Positions 14 through 16,657 of a stretch of DNA of 54,750 nucleotides are shown in pieces. Location: the IMG/VR virus record IMGVR_UViG_3300022562_001966, positions 1-54,750 of that record; one strand, written 5' to 3'. A model generated the notes under the pieces. It ran no database searches and was not told the origin of the DNA. It was given only the letters and a program-made list of their open reading frames with translations. Both the position numbers and the translations under genes were made by a program. Numbering within the stretch: the stretch's first letter is position 1; each line of letters begins with the position of its first letter. Origin of the DNA: a virus (lineage: Duplodnaviria > Caudoviricetes).

Positions 14-316
14 TTATTCCATCCCTTCGAAAATTGCGGATTGGTGATTGAGTGCCAATTCATACACTTCCAGCATCATTTTTCGGCAAGCTTGAAAAAT
101 CAGTAAATCTTGAATATACCCATATTCAACAAATAGGTTATATTCAAATCGCTTGTAAACATTCTCCATTGTCGTTGCTGTATTTTTTCCATCCCTGCCA
201 TTAATTCGCTTTAAACCTCTAACTTCATCGCTATAGCCTTCAATATCTTTTGATTCAATGAATTTTTCGATCTTTTCAGGAACCAATATGCATTTTTCCA
301 TTACGCGAATGATCAT
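14..316 (-). CDS. Hypothetical phage protein, paralog family A
   Basis: 100 aa; IRVMEKCILVP...GLKRINGRDG...ALNHQSAIF pattern shared with neighbours. Confidence 0.75.
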   Translation of the reverse strand: MIIRVMEKCILVPEKIEKFIESKDIEGYSDEVRGLKRINGRDGKNTATTMENVYKRFEYNLFVEYGYIQDLLIFQACRKMMLEVYELALNHQSAIFEGME

Positions 317-416
317 AATTTATTCTCCAATAAAAGTATTAAATTCCTTTTCGCTGTTTTAAGCATTAGCCATTTTTCTACTTCTACTGCAAAACAAATC
401 ATCCAAACTTGCTGGA

Positions 417-848
417 TTAACTGTAATCTACCCCGCAAACATCGCCATAACCGCTGATATCAAAGCCATCAATATCTACTGTTTCCAAATCAAGGAATTC
501 CAAACGCTGATTTACAGCATTAAGATAATCTTCTGTATCTATTTCTTCATCTTCAATTAATTCCCATCGCTCATTTGGATAAGAAACAGCATAAGGGTAA
601 ATAGTTTCAAGAAACAATATGGAAGTGATGTATCTTGTATCTGTATACCCCGTTTCATCTTCACATTGTTTTTTCATCCAGTTGTAAATCGTTTCAATAT
701 AACTTGAAGATTTTATTCCTGTGCGATTATGAAATCCTTCCAAAATATGTCGGCATTTCCTCTCCATTTGATCGCATCTTGCACTCAATAATTCATTTAA
801 ATCATCTGGCACCAAGAAATGATGATCAGCTATTTTTAATATGCTCAT
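417..848 (-). CDS. Hypothetical phage protein, paralog family A with acidic tail
   Basis: 143 aa; LKIADHHFLVP...FHNRTG...AVSYPNERW. Confidence 0.8.
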   Translation of the reverse strand: MSILKIADHHFLVPDDLNELLSARCDQMERKCRHILEGFHNRTGIKSSSYIETIYNWMKKQCEDETGYTDTRYITSILFLETIYPYAVSYPNERWELIEDEEIDTEDYLNAVNQRLEFLDLETVDIDGFDISGYGDVCGVDYS

Positions 849-1590
849 TTTTTGTCTCCTTATCTATGACAATTACCTCCCATTTAACTTCAGGATTCTG
901 ACTAATCATATCTTGTAATTCATTCATAAATCCAAGAAACATCACAAAAGCATTTTCACCGAATTCATTGATCATTGCGTCTTTGTAATTAATTAATTCG
1001 AGTCGCAATGGTGAAATAAAATCAATTAACGATTCCGCTCCGGTTAAGCCATTCAATTCCGAAAAATCAAATCCAAATCGGCATCGCTGCATCCATGCTG
1101 GATATGGTTCTGACAATCTATATTCATCATTATCATAACCCATAAAAACAGTGCATCGATCAATCATTGGTTCTAATTGAATCAAAGTTTCATTTCCATA
1201 ACTTCCACAAACCGCACTGATTATGTGTAGAAATTCTATGCTGTCAGTTAAGTGCTGTTCAGTATAGATATCGTTTTCAGAAAGAAATTTTTCATATTGA
1301 TTTTTTGTATTTTTAATTATGAATTCCACTAAATCATCAAAATCCTTTGCCCCCATTCCATCATAGAATGACAAATTTGCCGGAGCATTGCTGAACCTGA
1401 ATAAAAGCCAGATTTCTTTTGGTAAATGGAATTGATAGTCAAGCAATTCCAACATATAGTAATCATTAACAACAGATGAAAGTCTTAAACGTTTTTTTCT
1501 GCCTTTTGATACTGCATCTTGGTCAATGACTCTGAATTCATATTCTTCATTATTCATTATTTTCTGTCTCATTTGTTGATTGAGTTTCAC
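826..1590 (-). CDS. Hypothetical phage protein, two tandem family A domains
   Basis: 254 aa; two copies of the motif (LELLDYQFHLP...YDGMGA...CGSYGNE and LNGLTGAES...SQNPEVKW). Confidence 0.8.
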   Translation of the reverse strand: MKLNQQMRQKIMNNEEYEFRVIDQDAVSKGRKKRLRLSSVVNDYYMLELLDYQFHLPKEIWLLFRFSNAPANLSFYDGMGAKDFDDLVEFIIKNTKNQYEKFLSENDIYTEQHLTDSIEFLHIISAVCGSYGNETLIQLEPMIDRCTVFMGYDNDEYRLSEPYPAWMQRCRFGFDFSELNGLTGAESLIDFISPLRLELINYKDAMINEFGENAFVMFLGFMNELQDMISQNPEVKWEVIVIDKETKNEHIKNS

Positions 1591-2008
1591 TATCGATTTT
1601 CAATTCATATTTGATCAATAATTTCTTATAAGCAATTTCATGCATATCAATTGAATGCTTATAGACTTCCACACTTTTTTTACTTTGCTCTACTTCTTCA
1701 GTCAATTGTCTTATTTTTTTACGCAAACTTTTAATTATTTTGTCTTTTGGCGTTAGGTCAATCTTCTCTTTTTTTCTATTCTTTTTGTAATTCTTGCCGC
1801 TAATCTGGTTGATTCGATCAACGTATTCACTGTGATAGTTGTAAATTAATACCCTGTTTATCTTGGCCTCTTTTGCCACATTCGAAATATTTATCTGGCT
1901 ATCTTTTGGTATTACAATTGGTCGATTATAAATCAACCTCTGCAATGCCAATTCAATGATTTCTTTTTGGTATGCTCTGATTGATCGGATTGGAGCTTGG
2001 ACTTCCAT
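1550..2008 (-). CDS. Tn554 TnpC-like / TetR-like HTH plus coiled-coil protein
   Basis: INISNVAKEAKINRVLIYNYHSEYVDRI HTH followed by a C-terminal coiled coil. Confidence 0.65.
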   Translation of the reverse strand: MEVQAPIRSIRAYQKEIIELALQRLIYNRPIVIPKDSQINISNVAKEAKINRVLIYNYHSEYVDRINQISGKNYKKNRKKEKIDLTPKDKIIKSLRKKIRQLTEEVEQSKKSVEVYKHSIDMHEIAYKKLLIKYELKIDSETQSTNETENNE

Positions 2009-2409
2009 TACTTTTTACCTCCATTTTTATCAGCCAATGAATTGAGTAATTTGAATAATTCTGAATTGTGATGGCGTAAATTTGGATAGTAATGCTTTAA
2101 ATACGTTGTTTTCGTTATCAGCCATTTTCTGTTTTTGTTCTGTCTGGCCAATAGATACAATTCTCCCAAACGAAAAAAACAAATCCAGCTATCCATTACA
2201 TCATTGCAATTCGACTGGTTGGAAGGCGCTCGATTGAGAATGGCTTTAAATAATTTAATGATGATGGGCAAAGATTGCGCCCCTGTTTGTTCTTTGATTA
2301 ATTCAATGCCTAAATCATTGCCAGCAGCCAATTCAAATATCCGGCGTTCACTTTCCTCAATACGTATGTATTTTTCTCCGATACAAGCGATTAATTGATG
2401 GCCTTTCAT
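2008..2409 (-). CDS. Hypothetical phage protein, paralog family A
   Basis: 133 aa; GIELIKEQTGAQS...LARQNKNRKW; TAATG coupling to the next gene. Confidence 0.8.
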   Translation of the reverse strand: MKGHQLIACIGEKYIRIEESERRIFELAAGNDLGIELIKEQTGAQSLPIIIKLFKAILNRAPSNQSNCNDVMDSWICFFRLGELYLLARQNKNRKWLITKTTYLKHYYPNLRHHNSELFKLLNSLADKNGGKK

Positions 2410-2458
2410 GGTTTGATCCTTTGCTTTTGTTCTGAGTTTCTTTTTCCTCGTTTATTAA

Positions 2459-2770
2459 TTAGTCACTGTATTGCATAGCGGCTAAAAAAAGCTTGTGAAC
2501 GGTTTTTAACGCATTTTTATAAATCACTTCTGACTGTTTTTTGCTCTTGCAGAAATCCGCATATAGATCGATGATTTCTGTTTTTCTTTCAATCAATGTT
2601 TGATGCAATCCGAATAAAAAATCGGCTTTTAAGTAATCGTTTGGAAGGGAATTTAAATGGTCAAAACCATCGTGATGGTAGATTTTTGCGATTGAATTCA
2701 TTTCTTTTGGAATGATTATAATTTGATCATGAAGCTTTATTTGAATTTGATTATTATTTGTCATGGTCAT
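2459..2770 (-). CDS. Hypothetical phage protein, paralog family A
   Basis: 103 aa; IKLHDQIIIIP...GFDHLNSLP...AAMQY. Confidence 0.75.
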   Translation of the reverse strand: MTMTNNNQIQIKLHDQIIIIPKEMNSIAKIYHHDGFDHLNSLPNDYLKADFLFGLHQTLIERKTEIIDLYADFCKSKKQSEVIYKNALKTVHKLFLAAMQYSD

Positions 2771-2786
2771 TCATCCTGTTTATTAA

Positions 2787-3125
2787 TTATTCTAATTTCC
2801 CTGTTACTTCAATTTCATCAAATGTATCCATATCCAGCCAGACGCTATCTTGATGCTTTAAACAGCATTCCGATATGTGCTTTAATAATTCGATGGCTTT
2901 TGAGGCGCTTCCCGCATTGTGATCAAGTTCTAGTTCTCGGTGGAAAGCTGAATTCGTTTGGATGGATTTCAGCATTCTATTGACTTGATAAAAGGCAATG
3001 GCCCCTGTCATGCCAGCAATGTATTTAATGCCTTTTCCGGTATAGATGGCGTAGAAATGGGGATTGAGATTGCGATTGAAATTGATCAATTCATCTTCAA
3101 TTTTGATGCTGCATTGCATTGCCAA
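2787..3125 (-). CDS. Hypothetical phage protein, paralog family A (most canonical copy)
   Basis: 112 aa; IKIEDELINF...GIKYIAGMTG...CLKHQDSVW. Confidence 0.8.
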   Translation of the reverse strand: MAMQCSIKIEDELINFNRNLNPHFYAIYTGKGIKYIAGMTGAIAFYQVNRMLKSIQTNSAFHRELELDHNAGSASKAIELLKHISECCLKHQDSVWLDMDTFDEIEVTGKLE

Positions 3126-3230
3126 ATATCCTTATTTTGGCGAAATGGAATATTTCTAATTGTTATTGTAACGACAATTGTAATTTTTGCTTGTATTATT
3201 TTAGGTTATTTTTTAACCTGCCTTAAAAGC

Positions 3231-3254
3231 AAAAGAGCGCAAAATGCGCTCTTA
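3231..3254 (-). terminator. Probable intrinsic terminator
   Basis: Stem AAGAGCGCA/TGCGCTCTT followed on the minus strand by TTGCTTTT, just after the 3260..3583 ORF. Confidence 0.5.
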
Positions 3255-3259
3255 AAGAT

Positions 3260-3583
3260 TTATGGCCAGAACGGATTCAGCATCCATTCTGTTATCGCTT
3301 CAATGTATTTCTTATCCAGAAAGCTTACGGCCTGTACCAAATCAAACTCATTGTCATTTGAATGAGACCAGACCATCAAAGCAAATTGAAGTAAAATAAT
3401 TTGGCCGGTTGAAGCGGTTGCAAAATAGTCATCCACTCTTTGAATGTCATATTCTGGCGAAAATTTATCAAAATTAAACAGCCTGTGAATATGGATGCCT
3501 TTTTCAGCCAGCCAATCAAAATAATGCCGTTGCTCTGCTGTCATGTCGCATTTGATATCAAAATCCTGATCCCATATTTTCAT
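3260..3583 (-). CDS. Hypothetical phage protein
   Basis: 107 aa ORF with RBS (AAAGGGG), co-oriented with neighbours. Confidence 0.75.
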   Translation of the reverse strand: MKIWDQDFDIKCDMTAEQRHYFDWLAEKGIHIHRLFNFDKFSPEYDIQRVDDYFATASTGQIILLQFALMVWSHSNDNEFDLVQAVSFLDKKYIEAITEWMLNPFWP

Positions 3584-3606
3584 AATATTTACCCCTTTCT
3601 TTTTGG

Positions 3607-4002
3607 TTAATTAACAGGCAATGGCCCTATAATACTGGTTGCCATACTTTCAATTTGCTCTTGCGCTGTTCGGCCATCTTCTGACACGAAATGCAATTCT
3701 GTAATCCGGCAAACGCACGCTCGATTGCGGCAACTGTATTGCAGAGCAAATTCATTATTGCCATTCAGGAACGGAAAATTGAATGACATATATGCCTTTC
3801 GATTTTCCGTAATCAAAGTAACTTTCTCTGCTATATCTGTTGATACCAGAACATCATCAATTACCGGAACTCGATTACGATCAATTTGATCAATGGGCAT
3901 AAAACCTGTTACTGGCGATAATACAACGCGCCCAAATCGGTTCTGGTAAACGAATGGCTGATTGGTTTCTGGTATTGACCAGTCGTAATTTCGAGTAGCC
4001 AT
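3607..4002 (-). CDS. Hypothetical phage protein
   Basis: 131 aa ORF with RBS (AAGGA). Confidence 0.75.
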   Translation of the reverse strand: MATRNYDWSIPETNQPFVYQNRFGRVVLSPVTGFMPIDQIDRNRVPVIDDVLVSTDIAEKVTLITENRKAYMSFNFPFLNGNNEFALQYSCRNRACVCRITELHFVSEDGRTAQEQIESMATSIIGPLPVN

Positions 4003-4048
4003 GATCCTTATTCCTGTAATTAAGTGAGGTGGGGCTTTCGCCCCTTCC

Positions 4049-4285
4049 TTATAAATATCGATAAATTCCGTCTTTTACACAAATGACAGTCGGTTCATAA
4101 ATCGCCTTTAGCATGTTCTTTTTTGATCGACTGATTTTCATTTTTTGACAATTAACCGGAGTGCCATCGACTGTGAACCCACCGGCAAGCTTGATTGAAT
4201 TTCCTGAATCTGGGGCATTCAGCACTTCTCCAACCACTTCACCATACATATTCAACATTGCTGCTCGACCTTGATTGCTTGGCAT
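4049..4285 (-). CDS. Hypothetical phage protein
   Basis: 78 aa; strong RBS GAGAGGA directly downstream of a consensus promoter. Confidence 0.7.
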   Translation of the reverse strand: MPSNQGRAAMLNMYGEVVGEVLNAPDSGNSIKLAGGFTVDGTPVNCQKMKISRSKKNMLKAIYEPTVICVKDGIYRYL

Positions 4286-4323
4286 TTTGTTTCCTCTCTC
4301 ATTCGCTGCTTTGTATAGTTATA

Positions 4324-4351
4324 ATTATAGTCAATTTGCGCTAATTGTCAA
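4324..4351 (-). promoter_or_regulatory. sigma70 promoter with spacer operator
   Basis: Minus strand TTGACA-N16-TATAAT; CAATTAGCGCAAATTG at 4332-4347. Confidence 0.8.
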
Positions 4352-4365
4352 AGAGAAATTATGAA

Positions 4366-4806
4366 TCAATAGAAAATATTCTCTGGAAACGAAAGCAATC
4401 TAACAAATGATACTTTTTTGATTTCAGTAATCCGCTTTCTTTTTACAAGTTCACAAACGACTTTATGAACTTGCTTTGCTTGCTCAATGTTTGTTGTTCG
4501 ATAACATTGCCTTTGATCAACCCCCCGCCAAATACCGCATCGCTTTGTAAATATCATTGTTTCAAAAATAATCACATCATTGTGCTTATCACGACCATGC
4601 TCAACTGACAGTAACACTGTTGAAATTCGGCATCCGTTGACATAATTTTCAGCCAACTGATTATTCCATTTTGGATATTCCCTTTTGTAATTAAGATAAT
4701 CAATAAAATTAAATGCTTTTATTTCACCGCTTTCATCAAATGTAAAAAACAGTCGATCATCCATTAGTGATGATTCCTTCAATATTTTAATTTTTTCGGC
4801 AAACAA
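4366..4806 (-). CDS. Conserved phage hypothetical protein
   Basis: ISTVLLSVEHG...IFETMIF motif typical of a common small phage family. Confidence 0.7.
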   Translation of the reverse strand: MFAEKIKILKESSLMDDRLFFTFDESGEIKAFNFIDYLNYKREYPKWNNQLAENYVNGCRISTVLLSVEHGRDKHNDVIIFETMIFTKRCGIWRGVDQRQCYRTTNIEQAKQVHKVVCELVKRKRITEIKKVSFVRLLSFPENIFY

Positions 4807-5144
4807 TCCATTTTCTTATTTGCAGATTCAAATATGGCTAAATACTTTTTTGGCACTTTCATATCATTATCAAATTCAGCATCACCAAAATAAGCATGGC
4901 CACGATCAATTAAGCCGTTAGATTCCGAACCGATATCCTTTACTAACACCAATCGTGCAAATACAGGAATTCCAACTTCACTGACTACGGTTCGTTTTGG
5001 CGGCCAAACTTCTGATACTTTTTCCGAGTGTTCATAATCGATAATATCTTGATATTGATCGTCATAACACCACTCACATTTCCATTCGTAACAAGACTTG
5101 ACGCGAATGGAATCTTTAAATTCTTTTGTATTGTATATGCTCAT
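4779..5144 (-). CDS. Hypothetical phage protein
   Basis: 121 aa; TAATG coupling with the upstream gene. Confidence 0.7.
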   Translation of the reverse strand: MSIYNTKEFKDSIRVKSCYEWKCEWCYDDQYQDIIDYEHSEKVSEVWPPKRTVVSEVGIPVFARLVLVKDIGSESNGLIDRGHAYFGDAEFDNDMKVPKKYLAIFESANKKMDCLPKKLKY

Positions 5145-5368
5145 TACCCTTGCGCCTTCTCATATTCTTTAACCAGCTTTTCAGCGTATTTTTTAATCCG
5201 CTCTTTGTATTCAGGTTCATCTGGCACCCAAACACCATAACGCTTCAAACCTTGTTCTTCTCGTCTTGCTTTAAACGCGGTAATCGCTCGTCTGTCTCTT
5301 GCGCGTTTCATTTCCAATTGTTTTGGTGTCAATTCGTCCACTGTGGGAACATATCGCTCGTATGCCAT
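5144..5368 (-). CDS. DUF3018 / MazE-like ribbon-helix-helix protein
   Basis: FKARREEQGLKRYGVWVPD motif. Confidence 0.55.
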   Translation of the reverse strand: MAYERYVPTVDELTPKQLEMKRARDRRAITAFKARREEQGLKRYGVWVPDEPEYKERIKKYAEKLVKEYEKAQG

Positions 5369-5439
5369 TTTGAAGTCTCTCTTTATTTGTTGATGAATTG
5401 TTTATTCAACACTCACTCTAACAGAGTAGGCAATGAGTG

Positions 5440-6546
5440 CTAATCTGTCAAATGATTTAATGTTTCAGGGTTGATATCCTGATTCACACTGGTATCACGA
5501 ACAAACACAATGCGACTGCCAATCGGTTTGTTTTTATGCTCGCCTTTGTAATAGCGTTCATTTATAAGCTGCCGAAAAAACCATCGGCGATAATGCGCTT
5601 TCCGATCACTGTCACTAACCAAATGTTTGCCAACTGTCTGTTTTTGCCATTTGCCGTGATTTAATGGCTCTATGTGTTTTGGCTCTTTTGATTCGGGATA
5701 ACCGCTCTCAATTGCGCCGGGAAAACTTGAGCAATATACCCCCAACATCACAACAAGTCGTGAAATGATGAATTGCAGATGCGAATCTGTTTCTGTTTCT
5801 TTAGACAAATGATCGTATTCGAATTTATTGAATTTACCCAATATTTTTACGTACTCATCATAATTCTGAGATTTCAGCACAGGCAACAATTCACTTTCAG
5901 GAATACAAATTCGTAAAAGTGGCGATACAAGATTGCCGGATTCAACTTTATCCGTGAAATAATTTATTGCTAGGGTTTTATCATTTGCATAATCCCCGCC
6001 GCGATTCATTTTGACTTTGCCAAGTCCTGCTAATTCTGCAAAATTCAGCATGACTTTTTCACGCTCATCTGGCGACATGTAAGAGACCAGCAAACCTTTT
6101 ACTTCTATACCATCGATCGAAAATCCTTTTGGCATCGCCAATATGAATATATCATGCGGCATTTTGAAATGTTCAAGAGTGCTGAAATCGCATTTCGCTT
6201 CATAAAGTGATTTCAGTAATTCAGAACTGGCTGGGAAAATAACATTCCGATCAGAATGGTTGATCCATTGATTTTCCTCCATTAACACAACGGTATCCAT
6301 CGATGGCAATAAATCTTTAACAACATTTGATTTATACAAATAAGTCATTGCCTCTTTATATGCGGCCTTACCTTTTTTCTTGGATTTTTTATTGATGCCT
6401 CGCGTCTTTCGAATGGTTTTTTCCATCGTATCGATAAGCAAAGAATAATAATCGTATTTCATAATAGTTTGATCCTGATTTTGTTTATCGCCTATTCCCT
6501 CAATCAAGAGGGAATAGGGAATGGAATTTGTTGCGTAAACTTTCAA
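5440..6546 (-). CDS. Conserved phage hypothetical protein
   Basis: 368 aa; basic C-terminal HYRRWFFRQL...IVFVRDTSVN motif. Confidence 0.8.
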   Translation of the reverse strand: MKVYATNSIPYSLLIEGIGDKQNQDQTIMKYDYYSLLIDTMEKTIRKTRGINKKSKKKGKAAYKEAMTYLYKSNVVKDLLPSMDTVVLMEENQWINHSDRNVIFPASSELLKSLYEAKCDFSTLEHFKMPHDIFILAMPKGFSIDGIEVKGLLVSYMSPDEREKVMLNFAELAGLGKVKMNRGGDYANDKTLAINYFTDKVESGNLVSPLLRICIPESELLPVLKSQNYDEYVKILGKFNKFEYDHLSKETETDSHLQFIISRLVVMLGVYCSSFPGAIESGYPESKEPKHIEPLNHGKWQKQTVGKHLVSDSDRKAHYRRWFFRQLINERYYKGEHKNKPIGSRIVFVRDTSVNQDINPETLNHLTD

Positions 6547-6823
6547 CCATTTTTATTTGTTGCTCGCCAGATTCGTCAAGTAGGGATTGCAAAAATTCCC
6601 TGACAGGCAAATTATAATCGCCATCAACTTCAAATTGAGTCATTAAAACATTGTCGCAATTGACCACCAAGACTGGCTTAAAAAGTCCAGTAAAACCCAT
6701 TTTAAATTCAAGGTTGAATTCTTCACCATTCTTTTCAATTTTTGCAAAATAATGGCGAATATTTTCACCGCGATTAATGTCTTTCAAGTTTTTAACTTTC
6801 ATATATTCTGGCAATTCGATCAT
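6500..6823 (-). CDS. Hypothetical phage protein (start refined to MIELPEY)
   Basis: ATG at 6823 with GAG-rich leader downstream of the promoter at 6861-6889. Confidence 0.65.
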   Translation of the reverse strand: MIELPEYMKVKNLKDINRGENIRHYFAKIEKNGEEFNLEFKMGFTGLFKPVLVVNCDNVLMTQFEVDGDYNLPVREFLQSLLDESGEQQIKMVESLRNKFHSLFPLD

Positions 6824-6860
6824 GGTATTTCTCACTCTTGGTTGTTTTTCACACAATTGA

Positions 6861-6889
6861 AGTATATGCGCTTTGCGCTAATTGTGCAA
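6861..6889 (-). promoter_or_regulatory. sigma70 promoter with spacer operator
   Basis: Minus strand TTGCAC-N17-TATACT; spacer carries CAATTAGCGCAAAGCG. Confidence 0.7.
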
Positions 6890-6974
6890 GAGGATACGCA
6901 AGAAATATTTAACTAACTGACTTTGTGGTTTGGAAAGGAATCAGGGGCCATGAAAACCCCTGTAATCGTTATTC

Positions 6975-7268
6975 TTATTTTCTCATGCGCTTATCGGCTT
7001 TAGGATAAAACGGCGCTGGATCGGCAATGCCATCCCATTGGGCTAGAAAATCAACGGCCTCTTGGTGCGTTCCGAAACAAATACGGCCATTATTCACAAA
7101 GTCTCGATCAAGATCACAGAAAACGCCGACTGTGTATATCATTCGATGTATGCCGTAAAATTTACCATCAATTATGCGTATATGACGATATCCGGCGTGA
7201 AAAAGATGCAGAAATAATGCAAATTCTTCTGGACTAAAATCCTCAGCTTGAGAATCAATAAATTGCAT
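6975..7268 (-). CDS. Conserved phage hypothetical protein
   Basis: 97 aa; MIYTVGVFCDLD...RICF...WDGIADP pattern. Confidence 0.7.
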   Translation of the reverse strand: MQFIDSQAEDFSPEEFALFLHLFHAGYRHIRIIDGKFYGIHRMIYTVGVFCDLDRDFVNNGRICFGTHQEAVDFLAQWDGIADPAPFYPKADKRMRK

Positions 7269-7288
7269 ATTAATTGCTCTGGGAATGA

Positions 7289-8308
7289 TTAATGAATAAT
7301 TGGATTCATTTCGGTTTCAGCATCTTGTGATTTTATGGCTCTCTCATAAAGTGTATAGATAATGGTTTCTGTTAAAAATGCAATTGTGCATTTTTCAATA
7401 AATACATCTTTATCTACATTCATTATCTCTGCTAATTCTAATGCAGCATTAATATCATTTTCTTTTATCACATTATGTAGTTTTTCTTTATCATCTTTTG
7501 ACCATGTTTTTATAGTCTTTGTGAAATATGACACCATTCGATTATAGAAAATGGATAATTTATACATGCCAATTGAAAATAACAAAGCTTCTGTATAACC
7601 TGAATTTCTTAATGAAACGCATTTTTTAATACTGTATTCAAGCCGATAATCAAATTCCATTGAGTTAGCCTGTTCTAAATAACCATCCCTTTCAGATTCA
7701 CTCAGACTGATATAGGCGCACTCACCATGATCTTCTATTGATGGGCATTCTTTTGAGAGAAAATATTTATATCCTTCTTTATAATTTTTGTTATCAATGA
7801 AAGTTGCTAAGTCTGGATGCTCTGATTTCAATCTGCCAAGCAACAAATCTTCAACTTCAATCATCTGATTATTGTATAGATTGATATAATTGACAATCTG
7901 AATTAAGAACTGATAACCAAGTTGCAACTTCTTATTTAATACATAATCATTTTCACTATTCTCTAAAATATCTGACAATACATTTATGCTTGGCTCATTA
8001 ATATTTGAATCATTTCTCAGATTCATATCCTCAACAACAAGATCAGCAATTGAATCCCTTGCTTGCCATACCAGAATTTGTTTCTCGAATACTCGATTCA
8101 GTGAAATAAGATCATAAATACATTGCTTGATACCAACGGAATGATTCACTTGCATAAACAGCATAAATCCAGCAATTGGACGACTGATTTTCATATCCTT
8201 TATTCTGTTGTCTATAAATTCTTTTTCACCATCAAGAAATAATTTCGGAATGAGTAATTCTGTATTTTCATTATTCATTTTCTGATCCTTTTTGATAAGT
8301 TTCTGCAA
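7289..8308 (-). CDS. Helical hypothetical protein, paralog family B
   Basis: 339 aa; LLFSIGMYKL motif; likely true start MNNEN. Confidence 0.8.
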   Translation of the reverse strand: MQKLIKKDQKMNNENTELLIPKLFLDGEKEFIDNRIKDMKISRPIAGFMLFMQVNHSVGIKQCIYDLISLNRVFEKQILVWQARDSIADLVVEDMNLRNDSNINEPSINVLSDILENSENDYVLNKKLQLGYQFLIQIVNYINLYNNQMIEVEDLLLGRLKSEHPDLATFIDNKNYKEGYKYFLSKECPSIEDHGECAYISLSESERDGYLEQANSMEFDYRLEYSIKKCVSLRNSGYTEALLFSIGMYKLSIFYNRMVSYFTKTIKTWSKDDKEKLHNVIKENDINAALELAEIMNVDKDVFIEKCTIAFLTETIIYTLYERAIKSQDAETEMNPIIH

Positions 8309-9143
8309 TTAATTTGTGTTGATTGATTCCTGTAACGTTCAAAATGGCAACCATCAAAAACCATCTTTTCACTTCTCTCTCAATTTGCGCTATTTCTGCT
8401 TGGCTTACATTTGATGTATCTATTACATCTTCATTACAATTGCAGAATCTTTCAAATAGCGGCGGATTGATTTCACCAAAGTAATAAAATCCCAATGCGT
8501 TCGCTACGCCCATTGCGAATTCAGCATTATCCAATATCATGCTTTTCTGAAATGCTTTTGCTTGATGCAATTTAAATTTAGTAGAAAATATTTCATGAAC
8601 CTTTTCGTGATATATATTTTCATTAATCAGCGTCAATTTATTCAGATAGCCATCTGGTTTATATTCAAATCCTCCCATTTTCCAGCGATTGTTATATGCC
8701 CATATTCTTGCTTCCTCTTGACCAAAAGTGTATGCGTCACGAAATTCAGAATTGCTTGCTTTAATTTGATTAATGAATCTGATTAATGTTTTTTTATCAA
8801 GGATAAATCGATCTAAAGCAATTTGATAAGAATCATTGGCTTTTAATGCCTCATAAAATCTTGCTTGTATTTTTCTGCCTTCATCGTCTTTAGGAATCTC
8901 TCCCGCTCTGGAAATAATTACAATAGCCTCTTTAAAGCTTTTCCCACCTGTGATTTCTTCTGATAATTTCTCTAATGTCAGGTTGTTTTCTATCCATCTA
9001 TCCCCTGCCTTTGGCATATTTAATGCCCACAAAACTCCGGCCATGTAATAATATTTGCGGGATAAAAATCCATACGCAAAAGCAGGAACCGCTTTTTCAG
9101 GCAATAATGGCAAGTCAAATTCTGTATCTATATCAATGGTCAT
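8271..9143 (-). CDS. Helical hypothetical protein, paralog family B
   Basis: 290 aa; GVLWALNM and FKLHQAKA...GVANALGF motifs. Confidence 0.8.
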   Translation of the reverse strand: MTIDIDTEFDLPLLPEKAVPAFAYGFLSRKYYYMAGVLWALNMPKAGDRWIENNLTLEKLSEEITGGKSFKEAIVIISRAGEIPKDDEGRKIQARFYEALKANDSYQIALDRFILDKKTLIRFINQIKASNSEFRDAYTFGQEEARIWAYNNRWKMGGFEYKPDGYLNKLTLINENIYHEKVHEIFSTKFKLHQAKAFQKSMILDNAEFAMGVANALGFYYFGEINPPLFERFCNCNEDVIDTSNVSQAEIAQIEREVKRWFLMVAILNVTGINQHKLIAETYQKGSENE

Positions 9144-10176
9144 TTCTTTGCCCTCTATTATCTTCTCGATTTTTCACCATCATTGAGAATTCCGCTGCAT
9201 TTAAAGGTTCAATCACTTGATCATCAATGTAATCCTTGGATACTTGTGAAAGGAAATGGAATATGACAGAAAACCGATTTATAAAAATAACGCAATGAAT
9301 ATATTTATTCTCAATCCCAAAGTCTTCAAGTTTTAAATTATCAATAACTTTGTTTGACGATGATAGCCTTTTAATTTCATTAAACTCTTCATCGGATAAT
9401 CTGGCTTTCAAATTTGCATATTTTTTTGCAATTGCTTCAATTGCAGCAATTAAAGGCAGATATAAAAACCTAAGACCAATTGCGCTGCAAAAACCAATAT
9501 TAAACGGACTAACATTATGCAGAGGATTTTTTAACAACCCGCTTGCTTTCGCTTGATCCAGTTCAAATTCTTTGATAAAAGCAAGAGCCTTTGAATTGTA
9601 ATTTTCGCCCAATAATATATTCATTTTCAAAACCAATTCGCCATCAAAAGCATGGTCGCATTCATAATAATCTTCATCTTTCCCTGAATCTAAATCTTTT
9701 AATATCTTTTGCCTGAAATTCATGGCACTGAATGATGCCAATTCAACCCAATTCTCTCTTGATTTACATATTCTTTCCATAAATACATTGAAGCCTTCTG
9801 AGAACAAACATAAAGCAAACACGCATTTATCAGCCAGTTCGCAATTGTCTTTGATCCACTCAATTTCATCTGATTGCTCCAAGCTTGCAATGGATTTTAT
9901 TAATTTGGCTAATTCTTTGTCATCAATTTGCGGATTTGCTTTTCTTGCTGTTTTTTTAATCTCACTCTCTGCAACCAAGTACCCATCTGTTAAAGATTTC
10001 AGACCTATGGAATACAGCACGCCTTTTAAAAAATCACTTTCATCTGTCGTAATTCCAATGGCAATGGCTCTTATTAAATAATCATTAAGCGTTATTGTTT
10101 GTATCCTCATTAGTTGTAATGATGCAACGCCATCATCATAAATGTGAAATAATTTCTTTTTGTCAGATTCATTCAT
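9133..10176 (-). CDS. Helical hypothetical protein, paralog family B
   Basis: 347 aa; GVLYSIGL and FELDQAKA...GFCSAIGL motifs. Confidence 0.8.
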   Translation of the reverse strand: MNESDKKKLFHIYDDGVASLQLMRIQTITLNDYLIRAIAIGITTDESDFLKGVLYSIGLKSLTDGYLVAESEIKKTARKANPQIDDKELAKLIKSIASLEQSDEIEWIKDNCELADKCVFALCLFSEGFNVFMERICKSRENWVELASFSAMNFRQKILKDLDSGKDEDYYECDHAFDGELVLKMNILLGENYNSKALAFIKEFELDQAKASGLLKNPLHNVSPFNIGFCSAIGLRFLYLPLIAAIEAIAKKYANLKARLSDEEFNEIKRLSSSNKVIDNLKLEDFGIENKYIHCVIFINRFSVIFHFLSQVSKDYIDDQVIEPLNAAEFSMMVKNREDNRGQRNDH

Positions 10177-10191
10177 TATCTAATACCTATG

Positions 10192-10488
10192 CTATCTGTT
10201 AGTTGATTTTCTATTTAACATCACTTGCCATAATAAACTGACAATAAATACTATTTGGTAGAATGCGATTTCACATGCAATCTCATTTATGAATTTCCAG
10301 AATTCATGCTGCAAATCTGAAGTAATCACAGCAACAAATAACAAAATGGCCAAATCTCTTTTAATTGGCCGAAAACAAAATGACAAAATATCAGGTTCTT
10401 TCCAAGCCCTTAAATTGAAAAACACACAGGCAAGACCAACAATCAAAATACCAAACCAGTGAAAATCAAATATCCAAAACTCAATCAT
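10192..10488 (-). CDS. Small membrane protein
   Basis: 98 aa with about three hydrophobic segments. Confidence 0.6.
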   Translation of the reverse strand: MIEFWIFDFHWFGILIVGLACVFFNLRAWKEPDILSFCFRPIKRDLAILLFVAVITSDLQHEFWKFINEIACEIAFYQIVFIVSLLWQVMLNRKSTNR

Positions 10489-10496
10489 GGCTTAAT

Positions 10497-10889
10497 CTAA
10501 AATTTCATTTTTATAGTTAACGGATGTTCATCACTGGGCCTGACCTCAATGTATATTCTGCCATTGGCAAGAATGATTAAATGATCAACCATAAATGGAT
10601 CATTCGTCCATTGCTTCCCATCGGCATTAAAACAAAGATCATCAATAGAATTGCATTCCCCTCTTCTCGCCTTTAAATTAACTTGCAGCATTAATTGCAA
10701 GACAAGGGGCCACACTTCATCTAGTCGTTGTTTCTTTAATGCGCTATTTTCAATGCAATATTCCAGCAAAGTGACAACATTAAATTCATTTAGAATCAAT
10801 ATTTCTGATTCATTGAATTCCAATTTCGAATAATCAATCATTGTATTCGCCTTTGTTGTCAACAAATTTGTGAAATCCATTATTTTCAA
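10497..10889 (-). CDS. Hypothetical phage protein
   Basis: ORF in the co-oriented run; likely start MIDYSK overlapping the upstream stop. Confidence 0.65.
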   Translation of the reverse strand: MKIMDFTNLLTTKANTMIDYSKLEFNESEILILNEFNVVTLLEYCIENSALKKQRLDEVWPLVLQLMLQVNLKARRGECNSIDDLCFNADGKQWTNDPFMVDHLIILANGRIYIEVRPSDEHPLTIKMKF

Positions 10890-11133
10890 TCATTGATTTT
10901 GCTGAGGATAAAACTTCACCTATTATTTGTGGGTTACAATTGCTTAATACTGATAAAACTTGATCGTAATTATCTGGATCAAATGTGACCAATATCTGGC
11001 CAACATGAATATCTTTTTTCTGCAAACTTTCATCAAGTTTAATGAATTGCTTTTTTAATACTTTTTCATATCGTTTGAATTCTGCATCGACTGTAAAATC
11101 ATTGGCATTAGTGAAATCCGGTTTTCCTTTCAT
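10834..11133 (-). CDS. Hypothetical protein, paralog pair C
   Basis: GQILVTFDP...SVLSNCNP motif; ATGA-type overlap with the AP2 gene. Confidence 0.7.
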   Translation of the reverse strand: MKGKPDFTNANDFTVDAEFKRYEKVLKKQFIKLDESLQKKDIHVGQILVTFDPDNYDQVLSVLSNCNPQIIGEVLSSAKSMIENNGFHKFVDNKGEYND

Positions 11134-11756
11134 AATTTAACCTTTATTTTAATTTGCTTACGTCCAGTAAAAATATGGTTCAACGCCGATACAGGGATAT
11201 CCCACCCTTCCACATTCATCTGCTTCAGTAAAATTTTAAAGCGATTCGGTTTTGGCATTTTAATTAATAAATCGTCTAGATGTTGTTCGCCTAACTCGTG
11301 GTGATTAAGCCAAAACAAAACAGCTTCACGCCATGCTTGTTCGTAACCATAATAGCTAATTGAAAATAACTTATCTGATTTACCATGCCCTCGACTGACA
11401 CAAAATCCTACTCGATAATATTCATATCCCTTGTACCTCTCTTTTCTATCAACTGCAATTTTCATCATAATGCCTGATATGCCTGTTGTTCCTTCTTCTC
11501 TGGCATGAGGCGAATGATCAGCAATCAATTTTGCGGCCTTTTTAGCTTCAACTTGTTGCGCTTTTAATTGCTTATCTATTGAAATAGCTTTATTTATGAA
11601 TTTGTTTTGCTGAGTCAGTGATATGAATTCATTTATATTCTTGCTTTTCCTGAATGAAAAATACTTTTGATACAATTTCCCTGCAATCGATCTGGCTACT
11701 CTTACACCGATAAAATTCGCAGGATGATCGCCATCGTTGTAAATATATACGGCCAT
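11130..11756 (-). CDS. AP2-domain DNA-binding protein
   Basis: TTGISGI...KLFSISYYGYEQAWREAV; a second AP2-like unit at the N-terminus (GVRV...QKYFSF). Confidence 0.65.
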   Translation of the reverse strand: MAVYIYNDGDHPANFIGVRVARSIAGKLYQKYFSFRKSKNINEFISLTQQNKFINKAISIDKQLKAQQVEAKKAAKLIADHSPHAREEGTTGISGIMMKIAVDRKERYKGYEYYRVGFCVSRGHGKSDKLFSISYYGYEQAWREAVLFWLNHHELGEQHLDDLLIKMPKPNRFKILLKQMNVEGWDIPVSALNHIFTGRKQIKIKVKL

Positions 11757-11797
11757 GCTTTAACCCCATCAAACCAATTAATATTCATCTGCATCGA

Positions 11798-12085
11798 TTA
11801 ATTAATCTTGACCTCTTCATGATATGGTTGAATTTTATACTTAGGTCTTTTCAATTGCGTTAATAATCCTTCCAGTGTTTTTATTGCCTGATCTCTGGAA
11901 AGATTAGAAATGTATGAAAATTGCTTGTCTCCATCAACATAAGGGAAAGTTGCCAGCAAAAAACCAATCCTCTCTTGGCCGGTTTCTTTCTTTAATAAAT
12001 CATGTATTGATCCCCCCAGAGGTTCTATTAATTTACTCAATACAATTTCCAATTCATGTTGATTCAAATCTTTTGTATTCGACAT
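11798..12085 (-). CDS. Hypothetical protein, paralog pair C
   Basis: GFLLATFPY...SYISNLSR motif. Confidence 0.75.
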   Translation of the reverse strand: MSNTKDLNQHELEIVLSKLIEPLGGSIHDLLKKETGQERIGFLLATFPYVDGDKQFSYISNLSRDQAIKTLEGLLTQLKRPKYKIQPYHEEVKIN

Positions 12086-12096
12086 TATCTCACCTC

Positions 12097-12471
12097 TTAA
12101 ACCATGAAATTTGGCGGCCTCTGGCAGAAATCATTAGTTCCAAATTTCCGCCATAAATGCAAAGTATAGGGATGGTTATTTACATAATCCGATTTAGGTG
12201 GATGAAATTGAATCACCAAATCATCATCATCCCAAAACTGCTCTTTAATAAATTGCATTTCATCCCAAGTCGGTGTTCGATTTAATAACGTTGATGTGCT
12301 GACATGCTCCCATCCAAAACCATCTGAAGCGATGCAAATTAAATGAATGGTGCGGCCTGATTTTCTCAATCTATATGGAATACGAAACATGCCATTATTA
12401 CCATAAGATTCATGACTGCTGTAAGCACCGGCTTTTTTCAGCCGGTATTTTTCTTTTACTCTAAATGCCAT
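12097..12471 (-). CDS. Conserved phage protein (DUF7694-like)
   Basis: GWEHVS...RTPTWDEM...QFHPPKSDYVNNHPYTLHLW. Confidence 0.75.
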   Translation of the reverse strand: MAFRVKEKYRLKKAGAYSSHESYGNNGMFRIPYRLRKSGRTIHLICIASDGFGWEHVSTSTLLNRTPTWDEMQFIKEQFWDDDDLVIQFHPPKSDYVNNHPYTLHLWRKFGTNDFCQRPPNFMV

Positions 12472-12472
12472 T

Positions 12473-13135
12473 TTATTCAGTATCCTTTTTTTCTTCTTTT
12501 TTTACTCTGTATTTTTCAATGAATTTGTCCATATTTTCAATTACCAAAAAGCTGCCATTTTCCTGTATCTGATATTTCAAATCTGGATATTTTTTCAGGA
12601 TTAATGTAATCAAATAACTTCCAGCCAGACAATATCTGGTAAAAATAGTTAACCACCGCTTTACTTCCATGCACAATTCATGTGCTTTTTGCAATTCTTC
12701 AAGATGATCAATAAAATCAGTATCGAAAAAATTTTTCGAGGTTAATTGCTCTTCACTCATTTTATAATAAGGATGGTTTTGTAATTCTTTATTCTTACGA
12801 ATAACTTTGGATCGAAAATACATAAAACCAGAAACAAATTCTTCTAAACCAATTCCAAATAATTTGTTTTGCAAATCGCCAAATCTATCCATTTCCATTT
12901 GCTCAAGTAAATACTGGCATTCCGGCTTGTTATCGAAATATTGAATTGCTACTTCTATTTTATCCAGCATTTCCATAAAAAATGGATCTATTTGAATATC
13001 AGAGATAAATTCCCTCGTTAAAACTTCTCTATCAACAAATGAATCTTTTATCGTTTCTTTCATGTTATTTAATATTTTTTGTGCTGTTTCTTTGCTTTTC
13101 ATAATTATTCTCCTATCGCAAAACCAATCCTGCAT
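12473..13135 (-). CDS. Helical hypothetical protein, probable single-domain family B member
   Basis: LFGIGLEEFVSGF resembles LYSIGLKSLTDGY of 9133..10176; likely start MKSKETA at 13102. Confidence 0.7.
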   Translation of the reverse strand: MQDWFCDRRIIMKSKETAQKILNNMKETIKDSFVDREVLTREFISDIQIDPFFMEMLDKIEVAIQYFDNKPECQYLLEQMEMDRFGDLQNKLFGIGLEEFVSGFMYFRSKVIRKNKELQNHPYYKMSEEQLTSKNFFDTDFIDHLEELQKAHELCMEVKRWLTIFTRYCLAGSYLITLILKKYPDLKYQIQENGSFLVIENMDKFIEKYRVKKEEKKDTE

Positions 13136-13379
13136 TGATCAATAATAACCGCCATTCTGCATAACCGATTACAGAACCGGCTTTAACGCAATCACCAATA
13201 GATTGCTCTGTCCATCGTTGCACAGTTCGAATTGAGCAACCTGTGATTCTGGAAACATCTTCATTTGACCATCCCGCCCAATCTAGCAACCACAACACCT
13301 GATCTGTTCTTGGTGGCAACCAATCCTCCCCTCTTGCCATGCTTGGCCATATTAATTCTGTAATTTCTTTTTTGTTCAT
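13113..13379 (-). CDS. KorC-like HTH transcriptional repressor
   Basis: WLPP...LLDWAGWS...TGCSIRTVQRW...IGYAEWRLLLINAG follows the IncP KorC pattern (P..EV..L..AG...RT.RRW...IPYAAW.LL..AG). Confidence 0.65.
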   Translation of the reverse strand: MNKKEITELIWPSMARGEDWLPPRTDQVLWLLDWAGWSNEDVSRITGCSIRTVQRWTEQSIGDCVKAGSVIGYAEWRLLLINAGLVLR

Positions 13380-13401
13380 ATTTCATCCTTCCTTGATTGA
13401 G

Positions 13402-13887
13402 TTAAGAAACAATCCTCTGAAAAGTTGAATTAATAAAGTGCAATTTCACAATCCGCTCAAATGTATCAATTTTGACCGAATGGCTATAGGAATTATTTAG
13501 CTGCCTGATTATGGGGACAATGTATTTCAAACCATGTAAAACCAACTCTGCTTCTTTGCCTGAATCTCTCAATCTGGCCATCTTAATCTGGTTATTTTTA
13601 AATGATGAATTATTAAGAATGCTCATTTGATTCTGGTTAAAATAAATACTCAAAGCTTCGATATACGTTAATGGCGTCGTTATATCTGCCGGAATAATTC
13701 GTATAAACCACCCCATTTGAAATTTACCCTCTGTCACTTTTATTCTGCATAATTCAAATAGAAAAAACCGTTGATTGAATATTTTCACAAGATTGATCAT
13801 TCTGGTTGTATGATCAATTCTGGATTCAAAATGAAAGCTTAAATTTGATTGAAATATAGGATTGTAAGTCAACTTATTGAACCTCAA
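13402..13887 (-). CDS. Hypothetical protein, possible paralog set D
   Basis: 161 aa, AT-rich, overlapping stop/start chain. Confidence 0.65.
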   Translation of the reverse strand: MRFNKLTYNPIFQSNLSFHFESRIDHTTRMINLVKIFNQRFFLFELCRIKVTEGKFQMGWFIRIIPADITTPLTYIEALSIYFNQNQMSILNNSSFKNNQIKMARLRDSGKEAELVLHGLKYIVPIIRQLNNSYSHSVKIDTFERIVKLHFINSTFQRIVS

Positions 13888-14314
13888 TCATGAAAGGCTC
13901 ATCCTCTTCATTTCTGTAGATGGATAATTGTTGAGCAAAAGGTAATTTATCTTTGAGAATTTGGATCAGTAAATTTGAGCGTATGCCATGCTTATGTTCA
14001 TTTAGATCAACCAATATCAACATATAAATATGCTGGATAAAAAAATTCTCTAATCCAGCTAAGTTGTCCTTCATAAACATGAGAGTTAGATAATTAAGTT
14101 GGCAATCTTCAATAATCTTAACGGATTGTTTTTTTCTTAAAGGATTTTTCATATCCGTAAATGCCCATTCTCCAATGCTTGTACTGTATTTAAAATGAGC
14201 AAAATTATAATGTATAAGTTGAATTTTAAATTCATCAATCAACCCATTCACATTCTCTTTAACATCGACATTGATATTCAGCTTAAAATCATCCATTGAA
14301 ATTGTCCTATGCAA
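13874..14314 (-). CDS. Hypothetical protein, possible paralog set D
   Basis: 146 aa, overlapping chain. Confidence 0.65.
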   Translation of the reverse strand: MHRTISMDDFKLNINVDVKENVNGLIDEFKIQLIHYNFAHFKYSTSIGEWAFTDMKNPLRKKQSVKIIEDCQLNYLTLMFMKDNLAGLENFFIQHIYMLILVDLNEHKHGIRSNLLIQILKDKLPFAQQLSIYRNEEDEPFMIEVQ

Positions 14315-14777
14315 TGAGTTTTTTACCTTTTGAATCTTTGTAACCCCTGATTATTATTTTTGTATAATCAAGAATCTCATCTTTATTGAATTCAATTGAA
14401 GTTATGAAATACGCAATATTTCTAGCAATATTTAAAGCATCAATTTCTCTATGGAATCGGTTTTTGCCAAATAGATTATAAATAAAAATGAATACCTCAA
14501 ATTCCTTGAATTCCCTGTGCGAATACAATCTGACCTTTAAATTAGGAACAAACCAAGACCTGTTTCTAACGAATGCCATCCAATAGTTTTCGCCAGTTAC
14601 ATTTAACCTGATAAACAAGATTTGAACACTGCCATCTGACACCAAAATATGGGTTACTCTTTTATTGGCCTCTTCTACTGAAAAGTAGATTTGAGTATTA
14701 ACTATATTTTCTGGCGAATTTCTGATCTCAACATCTTGCGTCTTTACCAGAGACAATCGTATAGATTTATTTTTCAT
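14307..14777 (-). CDS. Hypothetical protein, possible paralog set D
   Basis: 156 aa, overlapping chain. Confidence 0.65.
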   Translation of the reverse strand: MKNKSIRLSLVKTQDVEIRNSPENIVNTQIYFSVEEANKRVTHILVSDGSVQILFIRLNVTGENYWMAFVRNRSWFVPNLKVRLYSHREFKEFEVFIFIYNLFGKNRFHREIDALNIARNIAYFITSIEFNKDEILDYTKIIIRGYKDSKGKKLIA

Positions 14778-14789
14778 TGTGATTCATCT

Positions 14790-16373
14790 TCATCCATGAA
14801 CAACATTCATATATTTGCCATTACGCTTCACGGTTATTTCAATCCCATCACCAAGCGATACAAAACGACCAGTTTGGATTAATGCCTGATCAACACTGGT
14901 TGGAATTATTTTTGCCTCCGAATCAATAAAGCGTTTCCACCAATGGACGACATGCATTCTTGCTCTTGGATTTTCGATTGCTATCCATTCTTTTGCGATT
15001 TCTTTCAAGCCTCGAAAATAAGTTACCTGCAAAGTGGTTTGCTTTCTCTGCCATTTCTTTAAATGCAATTCAGTTACCCTTTCTTTCTTTGGCTGACTTT
15101 TAAAGCTTAATAATTCCGCTGTATCCGCCTTTGGCATGTGTTTTGGAGTGCTTTCGAATTCAAATTCATAACCGCACGCGCATTCTCTGATTGATGGATG
15201 CTGCATGGCTTTGCAGATTGGGCAACGCTTCTCTGGGCAATTATCGGAGTTTTCGCCATTTGATTTCTTTCGTTTGGGCGCTTCAATCGTATCAATCGGG
15301 CCATGCTCTGCTGTATTGCCACCAAAATCCAATACAAGGCAATTCTCCTTGCCCTCGAATAATCGCATTCCTCTGCCAAGAATCTGCATCCATAAACAAC
15401 TGGACATTGTTTTACGCAATACAGCAATTAAATCCAGATTCGGGATATCCACCCCTGTTGTCAAAACATCACAATTGGTCAAAAAATCCAACTGGCCTGA
15501 CTTTATTGCATTAAGATAATTTTGCCTTTCAGCTTTTGAGGTTTTGCCTGTTATAGTTTCAACTCTGAATTTCATCTGCCTGAGACATTCAGCGACTTTA
15601 AATGCGTGTTCGATGCCGGAACAAAAAATTAGCCCTGCATTCCGACCGTTAAAATGATCAGCAATCTCATTACATGCCGATTTCAGTAATCCATCCTCGC
15701 TGAATATTTTCTGCATGACAGACTTGTTATAATCCCAGCCTGATTTATCCAAAGAATCAGTATTAAATAGGGTTTCAGTCGGCTTAGGAATCAATGGAGC
15801 AAGAAATCCCCGCTCAATCAACGTGCGAATTTTAATTTCGTAACAGATATCGGTGAACAATGAGCCTTCATCGATCAAATGGCCGGAATCCAAGCGCCAA
15901 GGCGTAGCAGAAAAGCCGATCACTTTTAATCTGGGATTGATGTTCAGCATGGCATCAATCAATTTATGATACATGCCAATGCCTTTAGGATTGAGTAAGT
16001 GGCATTCATCGATCAGGATTAAGTCCCTTTTCCCTAAAATATCTGGTTGCCTGAAAACCGTTTGTACACTGCAAAACAGAATGTTGTTATCGGTATCCCG
16101 TCTGTTAAGTGAAGCTGCATTAATCCCTGCATTCGCTTCAGGCCACACGCTGATTAATTTGTCGTGGTTTTGCTCAACCAGTTCTTTAACATGCGTGACA
16201 ATCAAAATACGCTGGTTGCAATATTGCTGCAACACTTTTTCGGCAAACAATGCAATGATTATGGATTTCCCCGCACCTGTGGGCGCTATGACAATCGGGT
16301 TGCCTGTTCTGTGAGCAAAATATTTGTAAATTGAATTTACAGCATCAAGTTGATAATCTCTGGCCTGAATCAA
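14790..16373 (-). CDS. SF2 DEAD/DEAH-box helicase with zinc ribbon (RadD/YejH-like)
   Basis: Walker A APTGAGKS, DECH, SAT, motif VI QILGRGMR, CPIC...CACG. Confidence 0.93.
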   Translation of the reverse strand: MIQARDYQLDAVNSIYKYFAHRTGNPIVIAPTGAGKSIIIALFAEKVLQQYCNQRILIVTHVKELVEQNHDKLISVWPEANAGINAASLNRRDTDNNILFCSVQTVFRQPDILGKRDLILIDECHLLNPKGIGMYHKLIDAMLNINPRLKVIGFSATPWRLDSGHLIDEGSLFTDICYEIKIRTLIERGFLAPLIPKPTETLFNTDSLDKSGWDYNKSVMQKIFSEDGLLKSACNEIADHFNGRNAGLIFCSGIEHAFKVAECLRQMKFRVETITGKTSKAERQNYLNAIKSGQLDFLTNCDVLTTGVDIPNLDLIAVLRKTMSSCLWMQILGRGMRLFEGKENCLVLDFGGNTAEHGPIDTIEAPKRKKSNGENSDNCPEKRCPICKAMQHPSIRECACGYEFEFESTPKHMPKADTAELLSFKSQPKKERVTELHLKKWQRKQTTLQVTYFRGLKEIAKEWIAIENPRARMHVVHWWKRFIDSEAKIIPTSVDQALIQTGRFVSLGDGIEITVKRNGKYMNVVHG

Positions 16374-16442
16374 AGCGACATTCCTTGTCTCAGTGTGATT
16401 CAGTAAAAATAGGTGAATTGGCGTGAATTGTCAGATTTAACT

Positions 16443-16643: not shown

Positions 16644-16657
16644 CTTACCCCCCCCTT

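Follow-up and report, generated by a model that had tools for sequence, protein, structure and literature searches.

Tandem diverged paralogues of one small domain at the end of an uncultured phage's early region

Six genes at the left end of IMG/VR record IMGVR_UViG_3300022562_001966, a phage sequence of 54,750 bases which was analysed whole and is called the window here, lie on the minus strand between positions 14 and 3125 and encode seven domains of about 100 residues each. Profile comparison makes it close to certain that the array domains are homologous and belong to one sequence family. That family is new to the databases searched and is confined to two phages; the architecture of the array is of a known kind, and its carrier is unusual. 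The genes and domains are designated as follows.

14-316, minus strand: gene A, 100 residues, a single-domain family member
417-848, minus strand: gene B, 143 residues, with the family domain at residues 1 to about 100 and an acidic C-terminal tail
826-1590, minus strand: gene C, two family domains in one protein
1174-1461, minus strand: C1, the N-terminal domain of C (residues 33-128 of the database form P0001)
829-1164, minus strand: C2, the C-terminal copy of C, a probable member, with its confidently modelled part at about residues 164-232 of P0001 (window positions of about 862-1068)
1550-2008, minus strand: gene D, 152 residues, isoelectric point 9.5, not a family member
2008-2409, minus strand: gene E, 133 residues, the family domain and a C-terminal extension of about 30 residues
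2459-2770, minus strand: gene F, 103 residues, a probable member detected through its N-terminal hairpin and first helix only
2787-3125, minus strand: gene G, a family member

An earlier reading of the window, made without database searches (the sequence-only reading), had placed these open reading frames (ORFs) correctly, all on the minus strand, with the likely starts of C, F and G off by a few codons. The database form of C begins at the ATG at 1557 and has 243 residues, the GTG at 1590 giving 254 instead; those of F (P0011) and G (P0004) begin at ATG 2764 and ATG 3119 and have 101 and 110 residues, respectively. A Shine-Dalgarno-like motif is found upstream of each array gene. The ends of B and C overlap by 23 nucleotides, the stop of E and the start of D share the sequence ATGA, and gene ends in the array generally overlap or abut. 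A 15-nucleotide repeat (14 of 15 positions identical) at 2450-2464 and 2778-2792 includes the F and G stop codons, each at offset 9 of its copy. It may be a trace of duplication or a common 3' signal, and as it is AT-rich it may also be due to chance.

Pairwise similarities between the proteins have B as their hub and were not significant by BLASTP, the best pair being B and C (E = 0.028 in a 13-protein database). All-against-all BLASTP of the window ORFs of at least 70 residues gave no further paralogue pairs. At the DNA level only short AT-rich repeats of up to 27 nucleotides were found, in agreement with the earlier statement that the copies have no similarity there.

Homology was assessed with profiles from which the domain under test had been left out. 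Firstly, a hidden Markov model (HMM) was built from the seven window domains only and each domain was compared with 1000 shuffles of itself. The real score was reached by no shuffle for B and G, by 2 for A, 6 for E, 48 for C1, 261 for C2 and 336 for F. In a second test the orthologues described below were added, with 2000 shuffles and 294 six-frame decoy ORFs for each domain. No shuffle reached A (20.5 bits), B (23.7 bits), C1 (10.6 bits) or G (21.2 bits), all of which outscored every decoy; the orthologues of A, B and G scored 26.7, 40.9 and 12.2 bits, respectively. The window copy of E was weak, its 3.3 bits being reached by 106 of the 2000 shuffles and 6 of the 294 decoys, and the orthologue of E, at 12.3 bits, exceeded all shuffles and decoys. 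The scores of F (8.1 bits) and C2 (6.0 bits) were reached by 20 and 10 shuffles, respectively, and by no decoy. The null was then made harder with 1302 natural and reversed chunks taken from the window, from a distant viral contig (L002, see below) and from an E. coli region. Not one of these reached A, B, C1, G, F or the E orthologue, three reached C2 and 21 the window copy of E. The best chunk scored 7.3 bits, which is close to the values for F and C2.

Profile-profile alignment with hhalign gave collinear full-length matches for the pairs A-B (P = 1.2e-5, 89 columns), B-C1 (P = 6.8e-4, 88 columns) and B-E (P = 1.1e-3, 65 columns). The pairs C2-E and C2-F followed with P = 0.014 and 0.022, and the remaining 16 of the 21 family pairs had P values of 0.072 or more; the minimum among 70 control pairs was 0.017, as chance predicts. 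When each domain was aligned to a profile of the others, P was significant for all seven: A, 2.3e-8 over 88 columns; B, 1.5e-7 over 95; G, 2.5e-4 over 69; C2, 9.4e-4 over 62 (columns 34-99, the centre and C-terminus only); E, 1.2e-3 over 92; C1, 4.2e-3 over 86; and F, 7.6e-3 over 24, which extend no further than the N-terminal hairpin and first helix. As controls, seven neighbouring proteins were compared with three profiles, and all 21 values were 0.10 or more; D was not matched by the family profiles. Profile-profile comparison was the check which the sequence-only reading had itself put forward, and the relationship passed it.

On these results the membership of five domains (A, B, C1, E and G) appears solid, and F and C2 are probable members which are partially detectable. 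The earlier claim of seven domains sharing one three-part signature was thus upheld over the domain for the five, for F in the hairpin region only and for C2 in the centre and C-terminus only. Could the family be smaller, with F and C2 resembling it by chance? The short alignment of F, the lack of a hairpin in C2, their scores near that of the best decoy and their non-significance in the profile without orthologues all point that way. However, among the 1302 chunks the decoys reaching them numbered none and three, respectively, their hhalign P values were below 0.01 when no control fell below 0.10, and both align collinearly at homologous positions. They also share the strand and size of the other members and sit among them in the array, and the helix pattern predicted for C2 mirrors that of C1. 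We therefore consider a five-member family distinctly improbable.

Relatives outside the window were sought in two ways. A word-indexed search with the seven-domain alignment examined 790 candidates and gave one outside protein, P0006. HMMER, run exhaustively on 1.84 billion representatives with a profile of six rows (E ≤ 0.001), gave seven proteins, ie B, C and E of the window, three new ones (P0007, P0008 and P0010) and a spurious one. The last, P0009, has 567 residues with eight near-identical leucine-rich-repeat-like repeats of about 63 residues; its 62.8 bits were spread over eight weak stretches, and it was rejected as a false positive inflated by its repeats and left out of all alignments. 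The other four are full-length one-to-one orthologues: P0007 of A (60% identical), P0010 of B (43%), P0006 of E (56%) and P0008 of G (59%). All four occur only in Logan and, because each was seen on two contigs of which the longest has 21,069 bases, they probably share one related phage contig of about 21 kb. No orthologue was found of C (the single match among 195 candidates was C itself) or of F.

Identity of the paralogues to B is 15-24%, compared with 43-60% between orthologues, and the duplications therefore predate the split of the two phages, the copies being old and kept as separate genes. The earlier suggestion of an old expansion on one scaffold is borne out by these identities and by the common predicted topology of B and C1 (see below). 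The accompanying statement, that a single gene of this kind is usual in phages, found no support, as the exhaustive search recovered two phages only. The array was likewise not found by blastn and tblastn among isolate phages, in viral contigs with C, a 368-residue neighbour and P0006 as queries, or in genome and metagenome contigs with queries from the family alignment. A search with the helicase gave one distant viral contig, L002 (40% identity), a 28-kb record estimated to be 44% complete, in which there was no family match.

AlphaFold2 was used to model B from a nine-row family alignment, with a mean predicted local distance difference test score (pLDDT) of 75 and a predicted template modelling score (pTM) of 0.70. 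The model has a hairpin of strands 2-6 and 9-13, a helix at 15-28, a low-confidence variable loop with a short helix at 35-38, two long helices at 44-66 and 71-89, a closing strand at 94-99 which bears the conserved Trp, and a helix at 105-120 in the tail. C was modelled from ten rows, all aligned with MAFFT to its N-terminal half, and gave a pTM of 0.46 for the whole protein. For C1 the pLDDT was 80-96, and its elements follow one another as in B. C2 was predicted at 51-76, with a helix-helix-helix-strand pattern which parallels C1; the N-terminal hairpin which the earlier reading had assigned to it (residues 131-163) was modelled as disordered, with pLDDT below 50. The predicted topology of B and C1, compared from their DSSP strings and not by superposition of coordinates, is the same, namely a beta-hairpin, three main helices and a closing strand. 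For the two proteins modelled, B and C, the predictions are thus not the unrelated structures that would have spoken against a family, B and C1 agreeing in topology and C2, at lower confidence, in its helix pattern. A homodimer prediction for the B domain scored 0.58, with one control at 0.41, and counts neither way.

Foldseek gave no match in the PDB at E ≤ 0.001. In BFVD both models had the same top two matches, the uncharacterised proteins A0A7S5V0R4 and A0A5J6TVR0 (Arthrobacter phage Lymara), with E values of 0.006-0.04, TM scores of 0.49-0.59 and 7-15% identity over 113-130 columns. VIA-align against 48,161 PDB representatives gave nothing at Z ≥ 8. The only match which covered the whole domain in both models, and the best or joint best, was E. 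coli YfbM (1ryl_B), at Z = 5.8 for B (root-mean-square deviation 3.5, 95 residues aligned) and Z = 6.0 for C1 (3.2, 97 aligned), both below the method's stated noise level of 7-8. The corresponding DUF1877 HMM (PF08974, cut-off 22 bits) had no match at E ≤ 10 in a six-frame translation of the whole window, and matched the control genomes; hhalign of the family profile with YfbM gave P = 0.39, and a search of the literature on YfbM/DUF1877 turned up nothing on its function. The ESM Atlas gave no usable match with B, of which its own model was poor (pLDDT 0.46), and the best sequence matches in the PDB were at E = 0.092 for the array and E = 0.59 for D. On the predicted models, then, the fold is one with no established relative, no match having stood out, and we make no claim that it is a new one.

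Family databases were as uninformative. A Pfam-A scan of the six array proteins at E ≤ 1 gave only UL73_N, Phage_Repressor_c, DPPIV_N and DUF5315, at E values of 0.16-0.27. No PHROG reached E ≤ 0.001 for any member, each of the 13 families listed being matched by one of ten members, and the family had no relative in NCBIfam, PADLOC or the PDB. The columns which all seven paralogue groups conserve contain hydrophobic residues, glycine or, at one position in the hairpin turn, an acidic residue. Length varies most in the loop that leads from the first helix to the conserved glycine. The net charges of A, B, C, E, F and G are -3, -18, -16, +8, 0 and -4, respectively, and the orthologue of E has a charge of -8 where E has +8. 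Since the conserved positions are hydrophobic or glycine, with no conserved set of polar residues, the sequences suggest that the domain is a non-enzymatic scaffold with diverged surfaces. Copies which are old, individually maintained and have drifted to 15-24% identity would fit a binding scaffold whose surfaces have been diversified.

Gene D differs from its neighbours in the array. Judged from the sequence, its N-terminal half is basic and appears helix-turn-helix (HTH)-like and its C-terminal half appears coiled-coil-like. In NCBIfam it aligns weakly with the HTH/leucine-zipper N-terminal part of IS3 transposases (E = 5e-4, 19.4 bits compared with a cut-off of 160), so that it may be a DNA-binding regulator of the cassette; Pfam gave no HTH match. 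Two features lie upstream of G.

3233-3253, minus strand: terminator-like hairpin matching the consensus, with a 9-bp stem (5 G-C pairs) and a T-rich tail, immediately downstream of the gene H stop codon
3120-3232, minus strand: AT-rich intergenic region, a possible promoter or operator of the array

The intergenic region contains copies of TTACAAT at 3177-3183 and 3165-3171, 12 nucleotides apart, and the palindrome ACAATTGT at 3174-3181; a promoter scan found no sigma-70-like site in it. Because the putative terminator after H is followed by an AT-rich spacer with repeats and a palindrome, the cassette may be a transcription unit of its own.

In the explanation that we put forward, genes G-F-E-D-C-B-A are a single compact cassette, all in one orientation, at the distal end of the early/replication block; of its seven genes, six code for a total of seven copies of an alpha/beta domain of about 100 residues which is specific to this lineage. 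As modelled, the domain starts with a beta-hairpin and a helix, continues with a variable loop that includes a short helix and the conserved glycine, and ends with a pair of long helices and a beta-strand which closes the fold and bears a conserved Trp or Phe. Each paralogue is proposed to bind a different protein stoichiometrically and so to block or sequester it in a conflict between phage and host or between elements; C would be a bivalent fusion and the embedded basic HTH/coiled-coil protein D the DNA-binding regulator. The cassette would then be a phage counterpart of a homogeneous polyimmunity or anti-defence locus. Taken as a whole, this account of non-enzymatic binders or inhibitors falls a little short of being probable. 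A role in host interaction or anti-defence, which the sequence-only reading had also proposed, would fit the absence of conserved polar residues and the architecture of the locus, and we claim no more for it than that. A bolder version, in which this is a phage "poly-inhibitor" locus on an undescribed fold, with the scaffold duplicated at least seven times, each copy disarming a different defence effector or toxin and the whole forming its own unit under D, is tentative and, in our view, on the doubtful side.

Several points weigh against the proposed binders. Pfam, PHROGs, NCBIfam and PADLOC assign no member to a known family of immunity, anti-defence or defence proteins, and no Pfam-recognisable toxin or defence gene lies nearby (29 proteins, positions 14-14777, most of the neighbours being orphans). 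The family is known from two phages only and is therefore not a widespread weapon. Orthologue identities of 43-60% do not by themselves demonstrate fast diversification. F and C2 match the family in part only, the models of B and C1 share most rows of their shallow alignments and are not fully independent, and the regulatory role of D relies on a match far below the family cut-off.

The paralogues might instead be subunits of one hetero-oligomeric assembly, for example an early structural or replication-accessory complex. In favour of this, the genes are adjacent, co-oriented and partly overlapping, and all four known orthologues are probably retained on one contig; the fusion in C suggests that family domains can work side by side, and a passage in PMC3113570 raises the same option for tandem SUKH paralogues. 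Against an obligate complex of fixed stoichiometry, no orthologue of C or F was found in the related phage. Net charge varies widely between members, and even between E and its orthologue, and the interdomain linker of C is modelled as disordered in a protein whose overall pTM is low. We think such a complex unlikely.

The locus might also serve lysogenic conversion, as a polyimmunity locus which neutralises the toxins of competitors (effectors of contact-dependent inhibition, type VI secretion or bacteriocins) and so benefits the lysogen without any anti-defence function. The architecture is as described for homogeneous polyimmunity loci and proteins in section 39 of PMC3482391, the phage carries an integrase (19428-20789) and is temperate, and the terminator-like hairpin upstream suggests a separately transcribed, moron-like unit. 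Yet the array proteins have no SUKH or Imm match in Pfam, no promoter-like site was found in the scan of the upstream intergenic region, and no linked toxin gene was recognised among the 29 proteins scanned. The known polyimmunity families are widespread in bacteria, whereas this one has no bacterial member among the 1.84 billion representatives. A benefit of this kind to the lysogen has, we judge, a low probability.

The least probable of the explanations is that the domains are DNA-binding regulators in which the central motif is an HTH and the paralogues recognise different operators: the motif (hydrophobic-x-x-G-x-T-G-x-x-S, then a helix) resembles an HTH on inspection, AlphaFold2 puts a short helix, a conserved-glycine loop and a long helix there, and a MarR-family chain is among the weak PDB sequence matches (E = 0.57), but no member matches an HTH family of Pfam at E ≤ 1, of the six proteins four are acidic and one neutral, the model packs the 23-residue helix that follows the glycine into the bundle, and PadR-like and CARF-HTH chains appear only at Z = 4.5-4.6 among generic helical fold matches.

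The phage which carries the array is uncultured and known solely from a sediment metagenome. The IMG/VR record is linear, with a CheckV completeness estimate of 64%. It has PHROG matches to a helicase (14790-16373), an integrase (19428-20789, plus strand), a tape-measure protein, a portal protein and a major head protein; judged from the integrase and the three structural matches, the phage is temperate and siphovirus-like. Its portal protein is less than 30% identical to that of every isolate phage. Minus-strand genes form a single block at 14-18435, of which the array is the distal (left) end, downstream of the replication genes.

Most proteins of this early region have no Pfam or PHROG family, and between the array and the helicase (3260-14777, minus strand) nearly all are orphans. 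The exceptions are a DUF7694 protein at 12097-12471 (minus strand, E = 1.3e-27) and a small sigma-70 region 4/HTH_23 protein at 13113-13379 (minus strand); a MazE-like match at 5144-5368 (minus strand, E = 0.0018) was below threshold. In the tail region two very large ORFs, at 25710-30605 (1631 residues) and 30624-35441 (1605 residues), are adjacent, both on the minus strand. The stop of gene A is 13 bases from the left end of the record, and an independent Logan contig starts at window position 21; it comes from the sole run which contained the DNA, possibly from the same sample. It gives no extension beyond the left edge, past which the sequence-only reading had thought that the array might continue. 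This near-identical start may be a true genome terminus or a common assembly break. Two other sequencing runs had matches to the window of at most 51 bases, and among the runs listed there was no RNA run carrying the window DNA.

Arrays of diverged paralogues, where they are understood, mark molecular arms races. If the copies are inhibitors with different targets, the array would offer a new binding scaffold and several new pairs of interacting phage and host proteins; if they are not, the array still illustrates cleanly how old duplicates are retained in the accessory region of a phage. The practical value is limited by the uncultured phage and the very narrow family.

Among known structures the array domain has a predicted likeness to E. 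coli YfbM/DUF1877 (PDB 1ryl, function not known) which spans the hairpin to the last strand at a Z score below noise, and it differs from it in the negative HMM and hhalign comparisons; the two BFVD phage proteins, whose fold likeness is also weak, have no annotation. Among genomic loci, acr-aca loci are anti-CRISPR or anti-defence operons with an HTH regulator, and usually combine unrelated proteins. The present cassette is similar in that it groups small orphan proteins in an accessory part of a temperate phage genome and includes a small gene (D) which is DNA-binding-like. It is different in that six of its seven genes are paralogues, no known anti-defence family is matched and the HTH assignment of D is weak.

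The closest architecture described is that of the polyimmunity loci (SUKH, Imm6, Imm11 etc.; Zhang et al. 2011, PMC3113570; 2012, PMC3482391). Passages in these papers describe tandem arrays of distantly related paralogous immunity genes together with multi-domain "polyimmunity proteins", and the first indicates that prokaryotic genomes rarely contain arrays in which one small non-enzymatic domain is present as diverged paralogues. Unlike those loci, the array has no SUKH or Imm sequence match, no linked toxin in view, no bacterial members and no clear fold match in the PDB, and it lies in the early region of a phage and not in a bacterial chromosome. Like them, it is a co-oriented and probably polycistronic tandem array of distant paralogues of a small non-enzymatic domain, in which conservation is mostly hydrophobic and one member fuses two domains. 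A poly-inhibitor locus, if that is what the array is, would be the viral mirror image of the bacterial polyimmunity loci.

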